From: a virus
Lineage: Duplodnaviria; Heunggongvirae; Uroviricota; Caudoviricetes
Reading direction: 5' to 3' (one strand)
IMG/VR virus record: IMGVR_UViG_3300017992_000017
Span: 33,418 to 97,417 of that record
DNA: 64,000 nt
Positions 6,572 through 61,650 of this stretch are shown here, in pieces. Numbering within the stretch: position 1 is the first letter of the stretch; each line of letters starts with the position of its first letter. The position numbers were made by a program, and so were the translations under genes. Under the pieces are notes generated by a model. The model was given only the letters and a program-made list of their open reading frames with translations. It was not told the DNA's origin and did not search any database.

Positions 6572-6856
6572 ATGGAAACTTCGGCATATATTATACCTGG
6601 AGGGGATAGCTGGTATAGTTTGCAGGAGGTTATCAAGCTGTGGGACGATGGCTGTGTCAACGCTGCGAGACAGAAGTGGTCGTGTCTGGCAGAGGAGTTT
6701 CGCCTGGCCGTGCTCAAGTTCGCCGTAGCTATTCTGCAAGATCCCGAGAGTGTAGCCAGTTGTCCTCACGTTCACATGGAGTCACTGTGGGGGGAGTTTG
6801 ATCTATCACCTGACCGGCTGAACGCGTTGGGTCGTGTCGTGCCGGAGCTTAACTGA
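6572..6856 (+). CDS. hypothetical protein
   Basis: 94-codon ORF with an AGGAAC-type SD upstream. Confidence 0.45.
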   Translation: METSAYIIPGGDSWYSLQEVIKLWDDGCVNAARQKWSCLAEEFRLAVLKFAVAILQDPESVASCPHVHMESLWGEFDLSPDRLNALGRVVPELN

Positions 6857-11496: not shown

Positions 11497-11837
11497 AGTT
11501 TCTTTACTGCAAAGCCTGCTACGACATCTTCCGGTTGTGGGAGGAAGAAAGAACCTGCAAGTGTGGCAAGACCAAGGGACGATACCTTGATCTCTTGGCC
11601 GCTGAATACGTAGGGGATTTCGCCGTTCCGCTTGGTGTGGACAACTTCAGCTTCGTACGAGCGGTCAGGAGACAACCGGAGAAAGGTCGCGGCGAGCAGT
11701 TTGAGGCGTTCGTCATACCAGAGCGATGTCCGACGTTTAAGAGAAAAGGTACTCCGGGAGAGGGTTGGGACGGTGGTGTAAAGGGTAGCACACCGGCTGT
11801 AACTGGAGGTGCGGGTTCAATTCCCGTCCGTCCGTGA
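11493..11837 (+). CDS. hypothetical protein with a CxxC...CxC zinc-ribbon-like N-terminus
   Basis: CKACYD...CKCGK. GTGA overlap with the upstream gene. Confidence 0.45.
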   Translation: MKFLYCKACYDIFRLWEEERTCKCGKTKGRYLDLLAAEYVGDFAVPLGVDNFSFVRAVRRQPEKGRGEQFEAFVIPERCPTFKRKGTPGEGWDGGVKGSTPAVTGGAGSIPVRP

Positions 11838-14207: not shown

Positions 14208-14254
14208 ATAGATGGCCTGGGTAAACTATACCCCAAACTAGAGGAGGTTAGGCG

Positions 14255-31055: not shown

Positions 31056-31060
31056 CCGTG

Positions 31061-31133
31061 GCCACCGTAGCTCAATTGGCAGAGCAGCGGATTTGTAATT
31101 CGCCGGTTGTGGGTTCAAGTCCCTCCGGTGGCT
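31061..31133 (+). tRNA. tRNA-Thr (anticodon UGU)
   Basis: Hand-folded cloverleaf. Acceptor GCCACCG/CGGTGGC, D arm GCTC-AATTGGCA-GAGC, anticodon arm GCGGA-TTTGTAA-TTCGC, T arm GTGGG-TTCAAGT-CCCTC (one T:T mismatch), discriminator T. No encoded CCA. Confidence 0.85.
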
Positions 31134-31150
31134 TTGACAAGGAGAAGAAC

Positions 31151-34337: not shown

Positions 34338-34405
34338 GTTTGTCGGTAGTCTTATTTCCAAAGTGTCCAGTTCGCAAACTAGACCGGCCGAAAAAATAAT
34401 CCAAC

Positions 34406-45997: not shown

Positions 45998-46047
45998 GGT
46001 TTGGTGTCCTGGGTTTCGTGAATTCTCGGATAGTTGAGGGTTGAAAA

Positions 46048-48342: not shown

Positions 48343-48636
48343 TCCTCATCTCCGTCAACCCGTTCCCAGTCTCCCAAAGGCCCCGGCTCGGTCGCGAATC
48401 CGAGTAGTGACCGCTCGCGAAACGGTCCCACGCGTTTTCCGGGGTTCGCCGCTCAGGTTGTACTAGTCACGCATGGCTCGTCCCTCCGTCTACGTAGCTT
48501 AGCAGGTGCCTGGACCCCCTGCCACGGTCTCTATTCGCTCTCTTTCAGCTTCGTTCTCTCATGGCGAATAATGCCAGCTATACCTAGAGAAAACCACTCG
48601 GATATCCCACGATAGGGACGGTTCGGCAGAGCAAGA

Positions 48637-48848: not shown

Positions 48849-49160
48849 CTAGCCCTCCAGGTTGTACTGAATGGAAACGTGGTACCAGATCTCGCTGAAG
48901 TCGTCCCCGAAAGGATCGATCGCTTTGGGTACGGTTGGCCACTCCTCCAGACCGGCATCTTCCAGGAGTTGCTCTTCCAGGTCCTCCGTGTCCACACCCT
49001 CCTCGGCGATCTGTTCAAGGCAGTCCTCGATCGCGTCGGCCGGGTGATTGCCGATACCTGTTCTCACGTGGTCGAACAGGGTGCCGCTGGTCCCACACCC
49101 CTGGAAGTATTGGGAATGCTCTATCCCGTGGTCGATTACTTCAAACTCGGTCACTCGCAT
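48849..49160 (-). CDS. hypothetical acidic protein
   Basis: ATG 49160 (MRVTEFEVIDHG...). The upstream part of the track ORF is translation of the 28-bp repeat. Confidence 0.45.
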   Translation of the reverse strand: MRVTEFEVIDHGIEHSQYFQGCGTSGTLFDHVRTGIGNHPADAIEDCLEQIAEEGVDTEDLEEQLLEDAGLEEWPTVPKAIDPFGDDFSEIWYHVSIQYNLEG

Positions 49161-49294
49161 TCTGACGTGTACCCGTTCCCGTTCCCATTCTGACATGCAC
49201 CTGTTCCCGTTCCCATTCTGACATGCACCTGTTCCCGTTCCCATTCTGACATGCACCTGTTCCCGTTCCCATTCTGACATGCACCTGTTCCCGT
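49159..49294. repeat. 28-bp tandem repeat, ~5 copies: ATTCTGAC(A/G)TG(C/T)ACC(T/C)GTTCCCGTTCCC
   Basis: Head-to-tail copies starting at 49159, 49187, 49215, 49243 and 49271 (last one partial). Noncoding, since the period is not a multiple of 3. Confidence 0.85.
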
Positions 49295-49388
49295 TGGTTT
49301 CGTGTCCTGTACTCATTTTCTCATCCCTGGTATTGTACGGAGTCTAGTTTGAGAGTCAACCCTGTTTGTCGGAGATTCTCGAAATTTC

Positions 49389-49982
49389 TCAACAGTGGCG
49401 AAAGATATGCAACTGCCCACTCGGTCCCTGGAGACTGTAGTTGTCCCCGATGAAGATGTCCCGTGCGAATTTCTCATAGTCGATGTAGAACTGGAGGTAG
49501 TCGGGGACTTCGTAGCACTCGTCGAACAGGTATTCGGCGTAGTCTTGCTCCGAGTCCCATTCCCCGCAATACGCTTCCTCGAAACCCTCAACCGTGGCGT
49601 GGTCGATCCCCTCATGGTCGACATAGCACGCGTAGGCTTCCCCGTACTCAGCGATCTTGGCTGCGAGGTCGGCCACTTCCTCGATTCCCTGGTACTCGGC
49701 GATCTGCACCCCGCCGAACCCTTCGTAGTCGTGGATTGCCCACTCTTCGGAGCTTGGGACCTTCCCGTCCTTGCACTCCTCACACCCTGCACCCTCACAC
49801 TCCGGACAGTCCACAAGCACGTTCGGTTCCGGGGAGGATCGGAGGATGACCCGGATCTCCTCCATGATCTCCTCAGCGTCCCGGTCTGCATCGATCCAGG
49901 CACCGTGCAAGATCCCAGCATTGTAGCTGGCCAAGCAGGCGACATAGATTCTCGGGGTATCGTCGACTTGTGTGATGGTCAT
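49389..49982 (-). CDS. ardA: ArdA-family antirestriction protein with a Cys4 insertion
   Basis: PRIYVACLASYNAGILHGAWIDA, EEWAIHDYEGF, FEEAYCGEWDSEQDYAEYLFDE, YIDYEKFARDIF. Insertion is CPECEGAGCEEC. Confidence 0.8.
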   Translation of the reverse strand: MTITQVDDTPRIYVACLASYNAGILHGAWIDADRDAEEIMEEIRVILRSSPEPNVLVDCPECEGAGCEECKDGKVPSSEEWAIHDYEGFGGVQIAEYQGIEEVADLAAKIAEYGEAYACYVDHEGIDHATVEGFEEAYCGEWDSEQDYAEYLFDECYEVPDYLQFYIDYEKFARDIFIGDNYSLQGPSGQLHIFRHC

Positions 49983-50015: not shown

Positions 50016-50783
50016 TCAACGACTGTACTCAATCTCAGCACTCTTGGCCAACTCCAGTTCGTCGGCGTCCAGGTGACCGGCCATTCCGTTTGTCTCCGGG
50101 TTGTCGCCGTAGAATCCCGAGCAAGAGTCGACATGCTCCCACTCCAGATGTCCACAACACTCGCACGGTTCACACTCCTCGACCACAAACCCGTAGACGT
50201 CTCCCCGAATGTACTGGTCGTAGGTCTCGATCTCGACTTGCAGATGCCTACGCGTACCCTCTCGGATGGTCACCTGTTCTCCGTTGTGGTCCTTGTATGT
50301 GGTATCCCAATCACCCGAACTGCCGATCAGCCAGTTCTGTTTCGCGTCGTCCAGGGATGCGTATATGTACCCGACCTGTCCAGAATCCCAAGGACACTGG
50401 AACGGACTCGTACTGATCGTGATCCCAGAATGGTCGAACAGGTAGACTGGCAGGATGACGTAGTATCGATCCAAAACGGCGTCGACCAGAGACCTTACGT
50501 GCTTGTCAACCTCCTGCCATGCCGTACCGTGGTCCCCGTCGTACTTGTCGATCAGCCTGTAGTAGCCGTCGTTCTGCCAGTACTCGATGATATATCCCAA
50601 CCGTGGGCATACCAGGACGGCTAGATACTCTTGGTACTCTTTCTGGGTCAGTATGGGTTGCTTGTCCCCCAGAGCGTATCGAGAATGCCAGGTTACAACC
50701 GTTCCCAGGTTGTCCCAGTCACGGGGGGTTTCGTGGGCCTCCTCGGCAATGATTCGGACTCGACGTTGTTTGGTGGCTGACAT
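50016..50783 (-). CDS. conserved hypothetical protein
   Basis: 255-codon ORF (PRDWDNLGTVVTWHSRYALGD...LPVYLFDHSGITIS). I recall this pattern next to ardA on plasmids and phages but cannot name the family. Confidence 0.5.
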   Translation of the reverse strand: MSATKQRRVRIIAEEAHETPRDWDNLGTVVTWHSRYALGDKQPILTQKEYQEYLAVLVCPRLGYIIEYWQNDGYYRLIDKYDGDHGTAWQEVDKHVRSLVDAVLDRYYVILPVYLFDHSGITISTSPFQCPWDSGQVGYIYASLDDAKQNWLIGSSGDWDTTYKDHNGEQVTIREGTRRHLQVEIETYDQYIRGDVYGFVVEECEPCECCGHLEWEHVDSCSGFYGDNPETNGMAGHLDADELELAKSAEIEYSR

Positions 50784-50863: not shown

Positions 50864-51190
50864 TCATGCGATCCCCCATTCTGCCTTGTACTGCCGGAGC
50901 CGCTCGATGCACTTCGGATTACCACTCTCCAGGATCAGAAACGCGTACGAATTCTCCCAGGCCGTGAGTCTCTCGAACCGTCCCCAGCCGTACTCTTGCT
51001 CCCTGGACTCGGACCCGTTGCCGATACTGAACGCGTGAGGATTGGCCGAGGGAGAGAACTGGATCATCACCTCCCCGTTCTCAAAGGTGGTCTCCTGCCA
51101 TCGCCATCCCTTATTGGCGAACTTGGCCTGGAGAGCGGCAACTCTCGCGAAACCGGACATGGGGATCGGCCGTTTGCAGGCGGTGGACAT
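50864..51190 (-). CDS. hypothetical protein
   Basis: 108-codon ORF. AAACTATACC motif 16 nt upstream of the ATG. Confidence 0.5.
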   Translation of the reverse strand: MSTACKRPIPMSGFARVAALQAKFANKGWRWQETTFENGEVMIQFSPSANPHAFSIGNGSESREQEYGWGRFERLTAWENSYAFLILESGNPKCIERLRQYKAEWGIA

Positions 51191-51254
51191 TAGGTTCCCT
51201 TTCTAGGTATAGTTTGCACGCTGGACACTTTGGTTTCGGGAATTCTCAGAAGAG

Positions 51255-51587
51255 CTAGTTGAAGTCAGGTAGGTCTCCGTTGGCCAGGTAGCAGAGACAA
51301 TCCTGACAAGCTCGCTCCCCGTGGACAATTTCGTTGTTTTCGTTCACTCCATGCCACGGCTCAAAGTCCCCACCCAGAACGGAGCTACAGATATCACACC
51401 CCAACCGGGAAAAGAACGGCTCAGCATGTACCTCCCCAGACGACCAGAGATCTTCAAACTCTTCCGGGGTCGAGTCCGGTGCGTATTCTTCCCGGCAAGT
51501 CTCACACCCAGGACAGATACCCACCGACACGAATTCCAGTCCCTCCAGGTTCGATTCGACGGCTTCCACGTATTCGTCAACGGTCAT
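51255..51587 (-). CDS. hypothetical Cys-rich protein
   Basis: ATG 51587 lies inside a 20-nt cassette (TGAGAAAGGGTACATCATGA) that recurs at 52452-52433. Confidence 0.5.
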   Translation of the reverse strand: MTVDEYVEAVESNLEGLEFVSVGICPGCETCREEYAPDSTPEEFEDLWSSGEVHAEPFFSRLGCDICSSVLGGDFEPWHGVNENNEIVHGERACQDCLCYLANGDLPDFN

Positions 51588-51600
51588 GATGTACCCTTTC

Positions 51601-52208: not shown

Positions 52209-52436
52209 TTATCTGATACTGTTTCCGACTGCCAGAAACGCGCCGACCAGTTCCTGAGACGGATGGACAACGCGTGGCTCGACCAGGGGAAAGTCACGGT
52301 GGTGGTTCTCGATCGTATCTTGCCGGTACCGAAACGCGACTCTCCGATCCCCGGTCACAAGCTCCGTCACCCATGCACCCTGACGATATCCCACGTCAGA
52401 GAACACTTTGACGGCAAACAGGTCTTTCCGGATCAT
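52209..52436 (-). CDS. hypothetical protein
   Basis: ATG 52436 lies inside the conserved 20-nt initiation cassette, directly downstream of tRNA-like unit 2. Confidence 0.4.
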   Translation of the reverse strand: MIRKDLFAVKVFSDVGYRQGAWVTELVTGDRRVAFRYRQDTIENHHRDFPLVEPRVVHPSQELVGAFLAVGNSIR

Positions 52437-52475
52437 GATGTACCCTTTCTCAGTCTCTCAAGTGAAGGTGTAGGC

Positions 52476-52681: not shown

Positions 52682-52787
52682 GTATTATGGTGCCGGGGGA
52701 TCGAGCAAGCAGGCTATACCTCGCAAGTCCCGACTCCCCCGGACACCCTTGTTTGTGATCTTGTTCCCGCTCGCACCACCATAATAC
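52682..52787 (-). other. long structured element upstream of the tRNA-like units
   Basis: 11-bp outer stem GTATTATGGTG/CACCATAATAC encloses an 8-bp stem CCGGGGGA/TCCCCCGG. The 3' side reads ...TCCCCCGGCACCA. Confidence 0.35.
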
Positions 52788-52924
52788 CAGTATCGCCAAA
52801 CAAGACAAGACCCCGACAGTGATTTTCCGAGAATCGCTATAATTGGCTGGTTTCGTGGGTATAGTTTCTAGAAAAGTTTTCACTGGACACTTTAGAAAAC
52901 GGGAATCATACCTGCCTTGCGCAT

Positions 52925-53233
52925 AGTACCCAGTCTGACATGCACCCGTTCCCATACCTGTACCCGTTCCCTCATGCACCCACGGGCCTGTTCTCTCCTG
53001 CACCCACGCGAGGACCTGCACCCATGCACCCGTTCCCATACTTTCACTACGTAGGAAAACAAGGCATCCCAGTGAAATACCTGTTCCCGTTCCCATTCTG
53101 ACGTGTACCCGTTCCCGTTCCCGTTCCCGTTCCCATTCTGACGTGTACCCGTTCCCGTTCCCGTTCCCATTCTGACGTGTACCCGTTCCCGTTCCCGTTC
53201 CCATTCTGACGTGTACCCGTTCCCGTTTCCTGT
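52925..53233. repeat. (GTTCCC)n-ATTCTGACGTGTACC array, n = 2,4,3,3, with degenerate copies
   Basis: Clean units span 53081-53233. Decayed copies (TCTGACATGCACCCGTTCCC etc.) span 52925-53040. Same unit family as 49159..49294. Confidence 0.85.
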
Positions 53234-53235
53234 GG

Positions 53236-53349
53236 CCAGACCGAGCTTCCAGAACCAGACCGAGCTTCCAGAACCAGACCGAGCTTCCAGAACCAGACCG
53301 AGCTTCCAGAACCAGACCGAGCTTCCAGAACCAGACCGAGCTTCCAGAA
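53236..53349. repeat. 19-bp tandem repeat x6: CCAGACCGAGCTTCCAGAA
   Basis: Six identical head-to-tail copies plus a degenerate seventh (53350-53370). Confidence 0.9.
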
Positions 53350-53393
53350 CCAGACAGAATCCTCCCAGAATCGATTCTCCCCCAGCGCATAGA

Positions 53394-53421
53394 AAACCCC
53401 CGGGGTATTGTCCGGGGGTTT
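53394..53421 (-). terminator. rho-independent terminator
   Basis: 10-bp stem AAACCCCCGG/CCGGGGGTTT with an 8-nt loop. The minus strand continues TTTTCTAT. Lies just after the stop of 53441..53935. Confidence 0.6.
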
Positions 53422-54895: not shown

Positions 54896-55661
54896 AATTA
54901 GACTCCTTTGCGTAGAATAGATTGGTGGGGAAACTATGTTTGATTATCGGTGGTATAGTTTAGCTGTCAATAGCACAGGGGAGCAAATAGTCTATTTTGT
55001 GGTGAATTCTCTAAAATCAGTAAGATATAGGGGGAAGGTTTGCGGGGGTTGCCCAGTCTGCGCAGATTACCATTGTGGGGGGTGTCATACAATATATTGT
55101 GCGGGAAGGTATCGTCGCCGGTGGAATCGTCCGGATATTGCGCGGCCGGTGAGTGCGCTAGCACGCTAGTACAGTTGCCCCGGGATAGCTTCCAGTCTGG
55201 CCCGATAAAGCCTACCCCCAGGGTGAATTTTAGCCTCCGCTAATGCAGATTTTCGGAACCACGGCCGATGCGGACCGAAAGCTAGGCGCTCTGGGGATTT
55301 AGGGACGGGAGGGGAATCCGGGGAAACCCCCTCCCCGGTGGTGCCTTAGTCCCTCGCTGGCGCTCGGTCCACCACAGTAGTCCATATTTCCGAGGTCCAT
55401 CTCCACACCTACCACGAGCTCCCATAACCCCCTGTAACCCCACACCTCTCCTGGTAACTTCTGGTCAACCCCCCAGAAAGAGTATATAGGATGTCTACAT
55501 AGTGCTCCATCTCCTTGCACAGTACCAAACCTCCTGGGACTGTGCAGACGTCTTTTCCCTACTCCTCCTCCCATGTCTCTAGAAATATCCCACCAAAATT
55601 CTGGGAAGGTCATATTTCCGGGGTCGAGCGAGAAAAATCCGGAAAAGTATAGTTTCTGGGG

Positions 55662-55689
55662 TTGCCTGCCGAAACTATACCGGTAGAAT
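55662..55689 (+). promoter_or_regulatory. sigma70-like promoter for the right-hand plus-strand block
   Basis: TTGCCT (55662-55667), 16-nt spacer containing AAACTATACC, then TAGAAT (55684-55689). The first gene starts at 55735. Confidence 0.45.
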
Positions 55690-60705: not shown

Positions 60706-61650
60706 ATGTACGACCTGATCCCAGCAGCTTCCAATACCCTCGTCCAGCACGACTACAACCGGCTTGTGGCGCAGTGGCTGTCCGGACGCAAGGATACCAC
60801 GCTCAACACGTACAAGTCGGCTCTCCGGGACTTTGCGGCCTGGTTGGACGTCCGATCCATGGCCGAAGTCGCTGAAAGTCTCCTCACGCTGGATGCTGGC
60901 CAGGCGAACGCGAAGATCCTGGACTACAAGAACGCTCTGATCGCTAGAGAGCTGGCACCTGGGACGGTCAACCTGCGTCTTGCTGCGATCCGGTCCTTGG
61001 TGTCTCTGGCTGCCATGCTCGGGATTGTGTCTTGGACGGTCCGGATCAAGGGACTGAAACAACGAGTCTACCGGGACACGCGAGGTCCTGGTGCTGACGG
61101 ATACCGATCGATCGTCTCCAACCTTGACACGACCACGAAACCCGGCAAACGGGACGCGGCGATCGTACGGCTCCTCTACGTGCTGGGTCTCCGTCGTGGT
61201 GAGGTCGTCTCCCTGGATCTGGAGGATGTGGACTTCTCAGCTGGACGCGTCGAGATCTTGGGGAAGGGACGTCTGCAGAAGGAGTGGGTGACCATCCCCC
61301 CGGAGACGCTCGAGACGCTCCGTGAGTGGGTGGATGCTCGGGGGTGGCACTGCGGTCCTCTCTTCGTCTCCTTGGCCAGAGGGAGCTACGGGAAGCGGCT
61401 CACGGGTCGTAGCGTGGCCAGTGTGGTACAGAAGGCTGGTGTCGCGGCTGAGCTCGATCGACCGGTGCGTCCCCATGGTCTCCGGCATGCTGCTATCACC
61501 GAGCTCCGGGACCAGGGCGCCAGCGATCGGGACGTGATCCGGTTCTCTCGGCACCGCTCTCCCGACGTCCTGCAGTACTATGATGACAACCGAGACGATA
61601 TCGCTGGGAGACTCGCTACCAAATTGGAGATACTCGATGAAAGCCGCTGA
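60706..61650 (+). CDS. int: tyrosine recombinase / phage integrase (XerC/D-like)
   Basis: N-terminal SAM-like core-binding region. Catalytic residues in LGLRRGE (R), HGLRHAAIT (HxxR), RHRS...LQYY (H, Y). Confidence 0.85.
   Translation: MYDLIPAASNTLVQHDYNRLVAQWLSGRKDTTLNTYKSALRDFAAWLDVRSMAEVAESLLTLDAGQANAKILDYKNALIARELAPGTVNLRLAAIRSLVSLAAMLGIVSWTVRIKGLKQRVYRDTRGPGADGYRSIVSNLDTTTKPGKRDAAIVRLLYVLGLRRGEVVSLDLEDVDFSAGRVEILGKGRLQKEWVTIPPETLETLREWVDARGWHCGPLFVSLARGSYGKRLTGRSVASVVQKAGVAAELDRPVRPHGLRHAAITELRDQGASDRDVIRFSRHRSPDVLQYYDDNRDDIAGRLATKLEILDESR

Follow-up and report, generated by a model that had tools for sequence, protein, structure and literature searches.

The array locus and its early-gene block

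The window analysed here, a 64,000-nucleotide stretch of the genome of an uncultivated tailed phage, carries phage genes for a family-A DNA polymerase with a UDG domain, a C5 methyltransferase, and SbcC- and SbcD-like nucleases. The PolA of the nearest cultured phage is about 30% identical to that of the window, and a megablast search against cultured phages gave zero matches for the 47–55 kb region. Small minus-strand genes form a block that extends from about 55 kb down to about 34 kb, with a strong sigma70-like promoter at its head. This predicted main early promoter (TTGACA-16-GATAAT, 54943..54970, minus strand), identified by a consensus scan, contains AAACTATACC in its spacer.

Two genes adjoin within the accessory part of this early block. 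The first is ardA (49389..49982, minus strand), recognised as an anti-restriction gene through Pfam PF07275 (E = 3e-42) and PHROG 2059. The second is a conserved phage gene encoding 103 aa (48849..49160, minus strand), whose product has at least 61 phage homologues and an AF2 model with a pLDDT of 90.8, and shows no match in Pfam, PHROG, PADLOC or PDB. The 228-bp gap between the two genes houses a 28-bp tandem array, which therefore has ardA directly upstream and the 103-aa gene downstream.

Anatomy of the 28-bp array

Tandem Repeats Finder (TRF) describes the array (49158..49295, minus strand) as 4.9 copies of a period of 28 bp, with 97% matches, zero indels and a score of 255, in agreement with the initial annotation, which had reported about five head-to-tail copies abutting the gene start. 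Read on the minus strand, the four distal units (GGGAACGGGAAC-A-GGTGCATGTCAGAATG) are 100% identical to one another, and the proximal unit (GGGAACGGGAAC-G-GGTACACGTCAGAATG, 49158..49185) differs from them by three substitutions. The ATG of the 103-aa gene (49160-49158) is the final triplet of this proximal unit. The proposal that the gene's own ATG and its 5' context are repeated once per unit is consequently correct, the last unit supplying ATG 49160, and the repeated ATGs do rotate through the frames as claimed (28 mod 3 = 1).

The array is real and far from chance. Specifically, the window contains 12 copies of GTTCCCGTTCCC where 0.01 are expected, all of them at this locus or at a related second locus (see below), and the array was recovered in four independent assemblies, namely the window and the contigs L001, L002 and L104. 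Outside both loci the frequency of GGGAAC is ordinary across the window, and beyond them the window holds no copies of the family's repeat motif. Immediately 5' of the array lies a leader motif, CACGAAACC (49296..49304, minus strand), with 6 occurrences against 0.61 expected; related CGAAACC motifs are found in the leaders of two related phages, L004 and L098.

Start codon of the 103-aa gene

In an alignment of 26 family members (25 homologues and the window protein), the homologue N-termini sit 2–10 residues ahead of an invariant E7/H11 core, a range that the N-terminus MRVTEFEVIDHG fits exactly. Because the homologue N-termini lie at this distance from the core, ATG 49160 is the true start of the gene. 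Two observations could suggest instead that the repeats are translated as a repetitive extension at the N-terminus of the 103-aa protein: a longer ORF (48849-49316) stays open from ATG 49316 through the whole array, because the unit is without a stop in any sense frame, and the database gene call (P0001, 115 aa) starts from ATG 49196 inside the array. However, the period of 28 is not a multiple of 3, the homologues are without such an extension, and ATG 49196 is just 1 nt away from the SD-like AGGTG. Moreover, in the 4-unit contigs L001 and L002 the upstream ATG 49316 is shifted out of frame, and the long N-terminal extension is therefore not conserved. We regard a coding array as very improbable. 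The 115-aa call is an over-extension from a wrong start, and the array is, as judged from the homologue N-termini and the frame break, non-coding and part of the 5' leader or intercistronic spacer of the 103-aa gene.

Ribosome-binding content of the repeat unit

The gene starts of the early block share the ribosome-binding consensus GAAAGGG(T/A)AC...ATG; the exact 16-mer GAAAGGGTACATCATG is present twice, in addition to near copies (5 matches against 0.4 expected). GGGAAC and GGGTAC form the core of this consensus. In the proximal unit, GGG is followed by 11 nt and the ATG, a spacing equal to that of the homologous start in L004 (GGGAG ACAACGAAC ATG), and we take this unit as the native translation-initiation region of the gene. 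Since the unit combines the ribosome-binding core with the native spacing, the array repeats, head to tail, the initiation region of the very gene that follows it, and is derived from that region.

Each of the four distal units contains AGGTG, 9 nt and the ATG, the AGGTG ahead of the reiterated ATG being created by their three substitutions. At the sequence level, the initial claim of a reiterated initiation context is thus borne out, and the array contains what would characterise a reiterated initiation region, or uORF array: an SD-like element suitably spaced from an AUG, on the strand predicted to be transcribed. ORFs from the out-of-frame leader AUGs end at 49151 or 49141, that is 7–19 nt past the real AUG, and in-frame leader AUGs would add 12–52 residues to the protein. 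We estimate the chance of both alternative frames stopping so near the real AUG at roughly 6%, and the AGGTG-AUG modules and the uORF stops near the real AUG could be a coincidence.

Predicted promoter and leader RNA

A sigma70-like early promoter is predicted upstream of the array (TTGACT-16-TACAAT, 49332..49359, minus strand; consensus match at 10 of 12 positions), and the gap between ardA and the 103-aa gene holds no other promoter-like site. The predicted promoter is paralogous to the main early one. In particular, its spacer motif AAACTAGACT parallels the spacer of 54943-54970, and the motif common to the two, AAACTA(T/G)AC(C/T), is found 8 times in the intergenic regions of the window against 1.07 expected. 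A consensus scan of both strands detected no sigma70-like site inside 49158-49295; the best in-array match by eye, TGTCAGAAT, reaches a -35 score of only 3/6. The suggestion that the units act as tandem promoters has therefore to be abandoned, the sole good site lying upstream of them.

No terminator was found between ardA and the array, nor between the array and the 103-aa gene. Because a predicted promoter lies upstream and no terminator precedes the array, the repeats should be present in the mRNA leader, transcribed either from that promoter or by read-through from ardA. The predicted leader RNA is purine-rich (14% U) and less structured than any of 200 dinucleotide shuffles (z = +3.46). 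With 0–8 units, the real initiation region keeps the same predicted accessibility, and on these grounds we rejected a model in which the array opens the ribosome-binding site.

A sister array at a second locus

The same unit family recurs about 4 kb away at 52925..53233, as initially reported, and its tandem part can be narrowed to 53083-53227. This sister array (53083..53227, minus strand; TRF and sequence) consists of 4.1 copies of a 34-bp unit, one of them 40 bp long, with the structure (GGGAAC)3-4 + GGGTACACGTCAGAATG; it shares the GGGTACACGTCAGAATG core with the 28-bp array and carries three or four GGGAAC hexamers per unit. Degenerate, non-tandem copies of the family lie at 52925..53060 (minus strand), and an unrelated perfect array of 6.3 copies of 19 bp (53236..53355, minus strand; TRF) adjoins the sister array. 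The two loci of the family are 3.8 kb apart, and the proximal unit of the 28-bp array exactly matches a sequence of locus 2 (GGGAACGGGAACGGGTACACGTCAGAATG).

Locus 2 lies within a 1-kb non-coding region with an AT-richer patch. Upstream of it, a two-gene operon is closed by a terminator-like hairpin (CCCCCGG-loop-CCGGGGG-TTTTCT, 53390..53418, minus strand), for which the partial Rfam matches span the terminator portion only. No gene stands behind the sister array. A 142-aa ORF, counted from its last ATG, runs through it and was rejected as a gene: it lacks a GC1/2/3 coding signature and, among the fetched loci, has homologues only in the near-identical contigs L001 and L002. The presence of the amplified unit at this gene-less locus is not explained by a purely gene-specific translational role.

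At locus 2, (GGGAAC)3GGG creates three canonical G4 motifs, and the 28-bp array contains long-loop ones; G4 motifs are absent from the 19-bp array and from two coding arrays at 41–43 kb. A G-quadruplex function was rejected, since the motifs follow automatically from the GGGAAC hexamer. In addition, the five arrays of the window do not represent one phenomenon: the 24-bp and 27-bp arrays at 41–43 kb encode in-frame repeats at the C-termini of two paralogous proteins.

As for gene order, the 103-aa gene is found immediately upstream of the homologue of a 315-aa gene in L004 and L098, and after ardA in the window. A 399-aa protein of L004 resembles the window's 144-aa gene (53875-53447) in its N-terminus and the region 48960-48667 in its C-terminus. 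From these split matches and the gene order it follows that the block between about 53440 and about 48960 has been rearranged or inserted relative to that lineage. The sister array marks the left edge of this block, and the 28-bp array with its gene the right edge. With low confidence, we suggest that the locus-2 copy may be a remnant of the 103-aa gene's initiation region that stayed behind after recombination at short linker homology and was amplified in its turn.

Copy number in near-identical contigs and in relatives

In 9.8 kb of flank, L001 shows 1 mismatch to the window, yet the two differ in copy number at each of the three non-coding arrays (5 units in the window and 4 in L001 for the 28-bp array, 6.3 and 2.3 copies for the 19-bp array, about 4 and about 1 for the 34-bp array), although these are short-read assemblies and assembler collapse of repeats could explain part of the difference. 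L002 has 4 units at the 28-bp array, the only array that its contig covers, and the four-unit count therefore agrees in two independent assemblies. A contig from a third sample breaks off inside the 28-bp array. Near-identical head-to-tail units together with copy-number polymorphism, as seen in these short-read assemblies, are the features of a VNTR or contingency-type repeat.

That assemblies disagree on copy number, and that one contig ends within the repeats, might also be expected if the array were an artefact produced by a loop in the de Bruijn graph. Against this, four assemblies made independently, from different samples and with different pipelines, all contain at least 3–5 units and share an identical variant proximal unit, which makes an artefact extremely improbable.

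The comparison among related genomes, proposed at the outset as a check, extends from five units in the window and four in L001 and L002 to relatives without any array. Ahead of the 103-aa homologue, the array is absent at 7/7 relative loci (about five distinct phages, 46–62% protein identity), and all seven keep the gene. The initial annotation had considered that neutral duplication would be indicated by transcription starting downstream of the array and by relatives lacking it with unchanged gene content. The latter was found, and relatives that have the gene without the array favour neutral duplication; the former was not, the predicted transcription start lying upstream of the array. Since the four distal units are identical, the expansion is likely to be recent. 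The number of hexamers also varies within the 28-, 34- and 40-bp units, a nested periodicity typical of slippage and repeat instability.

L098, a related phage, has short arrays with units of 7, 12, 13 or 15 bp in nearly all of its early intercistronic spacers. These arrays are A/C-rich, with 2–7% U, and lie just 5' of a conserved ribosome-binding region; one of them shows a two-unit difference between two samples. Because the early spacers of L098 carry these other arrays, repeats habitually grow in the early leaders of this phage group, and the 28-bp array is lineage-specific.

Exact-match scans gave no real match for the unit patterns in viral contigs or metagenomes. The 20-mer core yielded single chance matches only in metagenomes, and in GTDB genomes the two-copy core pattern was matched by nothing but unrelated simple repeats, including some coding QNGN tracts. 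Searches for known RNA families returned nothing relevant, either at Rfam gathering thresholds or at E <= 10 over both loci, and we found no described equivalent of such an array in the literature.

Discussion

The best-supported assignment places the array in a known class, the hypervariable intergenic tandem repeats. It shares with bacterial intergenic VNTRs and contingency loci the near-perfect head-to-tail units, the copy-number differences between otherwise identical genomes, a site between promoter and start codon, and the shift in frames and spacing brought about by unit number. It differs from them in that it would lie in a phage early leader, in that the unit is a whole ribosome-binding region with its ATG rather than a 1–8-bp tract, and in that an on/off consequence is not evident, because the native start is intact. 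The array is also reminiscent of uORFs, ribosome standby sites and unstructured leader enhancers, with which it has in common an unstructured, U-poor leader, SD-like elements, AUGs and uORFs ending just past the main AUG; unlike these, it consists of identical repeats and brings no predicted gain in accessibility. T4-type PeSL elements and lambdoid boundary sequences are repeated regulatory cassettes at early-gene boundaries which mediate module shuffling. Here too a short regulatory sequence recurs at gene boundaries of a plastic early region, with a gene order that differs from relatives, but what recurs is a ribosome-binding region instead of a promoter with a stem-loop, and it is tandemly amplified.

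The array could instead have been selected as an expression tuner, that is a phage contingency locus in which gain or loss of 28-bp units would switch the frame of leader AUGs relative to the gene and change ribosome loading. The dose or isoform of an early, possibly anti-defence, protein would then vary stochastically. The position between the predicted promoter and the start codon, the polymorphic copy number, the one-step frame rotation per unit (ATG 49316 is in frame with 5 units and not with 4), the place of the gene beside ardA in the accessory early block and the same habit in many early spacers of a related phage are all compatible with such a role. We nevertheless hold it to be unlikely, as copy number leaves the native start and ribosome-binding site untouched, no on/off logic is evident, predicted accessibility is constant across copy numbers, and the 103-aa gene has no functional match in the databases. 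A DNA-level role, with a factor reading GGGAAC or GTCAGAAT and both loci cooperating as origin iterons, centromere-like sites or operators, is improbable. Arrays of this type, such as lambda ori, P1 oriR/incA, F sopC and P4 ori/crr, contain direct repeats of 19–43 bp, and the window resembles them in its tandem direct repeats of 19–34 bp, in having one family at two loci a few kb apart, and in the 1-kb non-coding region with an AT-richer patch at locus 2. However, units of 28, 34 and 40 bp do not keep a constant helical phase, only one copy is present at locus 2 of L001, the window has no further sites with the motif, and the array overlaps a start codon inside a predicted transcribed leader. 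With irregular units, no initiator, ParB, partition-domain or HTH protein recognisable among the flanking genes, and seven relative loci without the array, an iteron origin and a partition centromere were both rejected. The initial suggestion of operators, or of a binding array for a factor recognising GGGAAC, fares no better, given the variable unit length and the lack of a recognisable DNA-binding gene nearby; in addition, the spacers of the early promoters are occupied by a different motif (AAACTATACC).

The predicted presence of the repeats in RNA raises the further question of a decoy, in which they would sequester a type III toxin, Cas proteins (as an RNA anti-CRISPR) or an RNA-binding regulator, or would fold into RNA G-quadruplexes. 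The RNA antitoxins of type III toxin–antitoxin systems (ToxI, AntiQ, CptI and TenpI) have structured, pseudoknotted units of about 35–45 nt, longer than the 28-nt unit found here, and are followed by a Rho-independent terminator and a toxin gene of the ToxN, AbiQ, CptN or TenpN type. The likeness lies in promoter-driven tandem direct repeats directly upstream of a gene, here in an anti-defence neighbourhood, and in an expandable phage copy: phage PhiTE escapes ToxIN by expansion of a pseudo-ToxI repeat (PMC5449768). The three canonical G4 motifs at locus 2 and the long-loop ones in the 28-bp array could be added in favour, with the reservation that they come automatically with the hexamer. On the other hand, the unit is unstructured and overlaps a start codon, the array lacks both a terminator behind it and a ToxN-like partner gene, and the downstream proteins are without PADLOC, Pfam or PHROG match, on which basis a type III antitoxin or pseudo-ToxI was discarded. 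Rfam gave no ToxI or CRISPR-DR match even at E <= 10, and collection scans revealed no host counterpart, the 20-mer core being absent from metagenome arrays and the tandem matches in GTDB genomes being unrelated simple repeats. A CRISPR-repeat mimic was likewise rejected, as there is no CRISPR-DR family match, no spacer-containing array with the core in exact-match scans, and no internal palindrome; a host CRISPR array whose repeat has diverged would escape such scans. An RNA decoy is thus, in our opinion, a poor candidate.

The explanation we favour, with a confidence somewhat better than even, is that the array is a recent and unstable slippage amplification of a ribosome-binding region within a transcribed early leader; any effect would fall on translation, through uORFs or N-terminal extensions, and would most likely be modest at most. 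In the 103-aa early gene, the amplified stretch would comprise the SD-like GGGAAC together with spacer and ATG, and replication slippage or unequal recombination would be the most likely cause. Situated between a sigma70-like early promoter and the true start, the array would be transcribed and exist as RNA, which would be purine-rich, U-poor and unusually unstructured, and would add four SD-like/AUG modules in rotating frames. Ribosomes starting out of frame would make short peptides ending 7–19 nt past the real AUG, with re-initiation possible, and ribosomes starting in frame would make an N-terminally extended protein. The amount and form of the protein would then shift with each change in unit number. 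We consider it most probable that the repeats are a by-product of mutation, and that the phage tolerates them because they leave intact the native initiation region beside the gene.

A wider reading concerns a whole clade of uncultivated ArdA phages, in which U-poor early-leader repeats seeded at conserved leader and ribosome-binding motifs (CACGAAACC, GGGAAC and CAGCAAC), and varying rapidly, would act as contingency loci that make early, possibly anti-defence, proteins vary stochastically in dose or isoform, or as RNA sponges for a host RNA-binding or defence factor. We consider this distinctly unlikely; if true, the 28-bp array would be one instance of such a system.

In conclusion, these data have a direct value for annotation, since the 115-aa database call starts inside a repeat, and short-read assemblies break or collapse at such arrays. 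If copy number does tune the translation of an early gene, the locus would be a rare phage case of contingency-type hypermutable regulation, beside an anti-restriction gene, and the recurrence of the repeat habit in L098 makes this question testable.

Recurrent short sequence motifs

The 10-nt motif AAACTATACC occurs eight times in the window, compared to 1.07 copies expected, and maps to intergenic DNA on both strands (54952-54961, 55672-55681, 55646-55655, 51206-51215, 52858-52867, 34376-34385, 14223-14232 and 6612-6621). A ninth copy with two mismatches, AAACTAGACT, lies at 49341-49350, within the spacer of the predicted promoter preceding the 28-bp array, the tandem repeat in the leader of the 103-aa gene. 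Three predicted sigma70-like early promoters carry the motif in their spacers, the copies at 55646 and 55672 form an inverted pair, and at three sites the motif is preceded by AAAGTGTCCAG. AAACTATACC may act as an operator or as a phage-specific promoter element.

A further motif, CACGAAACC, was found in six copies (49296-49304, 52849-52857, 46012-46020, 50727-50735, 402-410 and 61134-61142), when 0.61 would be expected. Half of them are located in early leaders; one copy directly adjoins the 28-bp array, and another directly follows AAACTATACC at locus 2, the site of the sister array. In addition, some arrays in L098 and L004, two loci of related phages, are built of CGAAACC units, which are related to CACGAAACC.

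The initiation regions of two unrelated small genes share the identical 16-nt sequence GAAAGGGTACATCATG (51585-51600 and 52434-52449), with near copies at 51188 and 52196, and the five matches recorded exceed the 0.4 expected.

Other tandem arrays in the window and in related phages

A perfect 19-bp array of 6.3 copies (53236-53355; unit TTCTGGAAGCTCGGTCTGG on the minus strand) separates a terminator-like hairpin from the sister array; in the near-identical contig L001 it numbers 2.3 copies. The array is unrelated in sequence and is not U-poor. Two longer arrays, of 24 bp x 25.5 (42873-43483) and 27 bp x 10 (41174-41450), encode in-frame C-terminal repeats of 8 and 9 aa in ORFs 42859-43872 and 41129-41842, respectively, whose products are paralogous proteins both showing the N-terminus MC(N/D)FLS. 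These two arrays are coding repeats, in which they differ from the 28-, 34- and 19-bp arrays.

In L098 (2959-4617), as well as in the related locus L099, A/C-rich, U-poor short tandem arrays make up nearly every early intercistronic spacer. The L098 arrays, consisting of CAGCAAC x8, AACCAGCAAGCGC x7, AACCGGGCACGA x4-5 and GCCGGTCACCGGGCT x4.8, are placed just 5' of a conserved ribosome-binding region, and the two loci differ by two 15-bp units.

Folds in non-coding DNA and tRNA genes

Downstream of the sister array, a non-coding region of 1 kb contains, on the minus strand (~52677-52476), two tandem cloverleaf-like folds with UUCG T-loops and 7-bp acceptor stems (GGGUAGG...CCUACCC and GGGACGG...CCGUCCC), together with a hairpin with 28-nt arms (52682-52787). 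Neither standard ARAGORN nor Rfam called these folds. With relaxed settings, ARAGORN reported a tRNA-Glu(CUC) that contains an intron, located approximately at 52572-52477. Folding gave a z-score of -1.78. The plus strand carries two tRNA genes (11767-11835 and 31060-31134). One is a tRNA-Thr(UGU); to the other, ARAGORN assigns no anticodon ('tRNA-???', with a 2-nt anticodon call) and Rfam a tRNA match of 41 bits. Separately, a GC-rich gap of 294 bp without a called gene (48343-48636), possibly structured, divides the 69-aa and 67-aa genes.

Apparent insertion or rearrangement around ardA and the two arrays

A single 399-aa protein of L004 (13602-14801 of that locus) matches two distant portions of the window. 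Its N-terminus corresponds to the 144-aa gene (53875-53447), and its C-terminus to 48960-48667, that is, the 69-aa gene region extended by 38 codons upstream, an extension that runs, in a different frame, into the 3' end of the gene for the 103-aa protein. The intervening ~4.5 kb, encompassing ardA and both arrays, looks inserted or rearranged.
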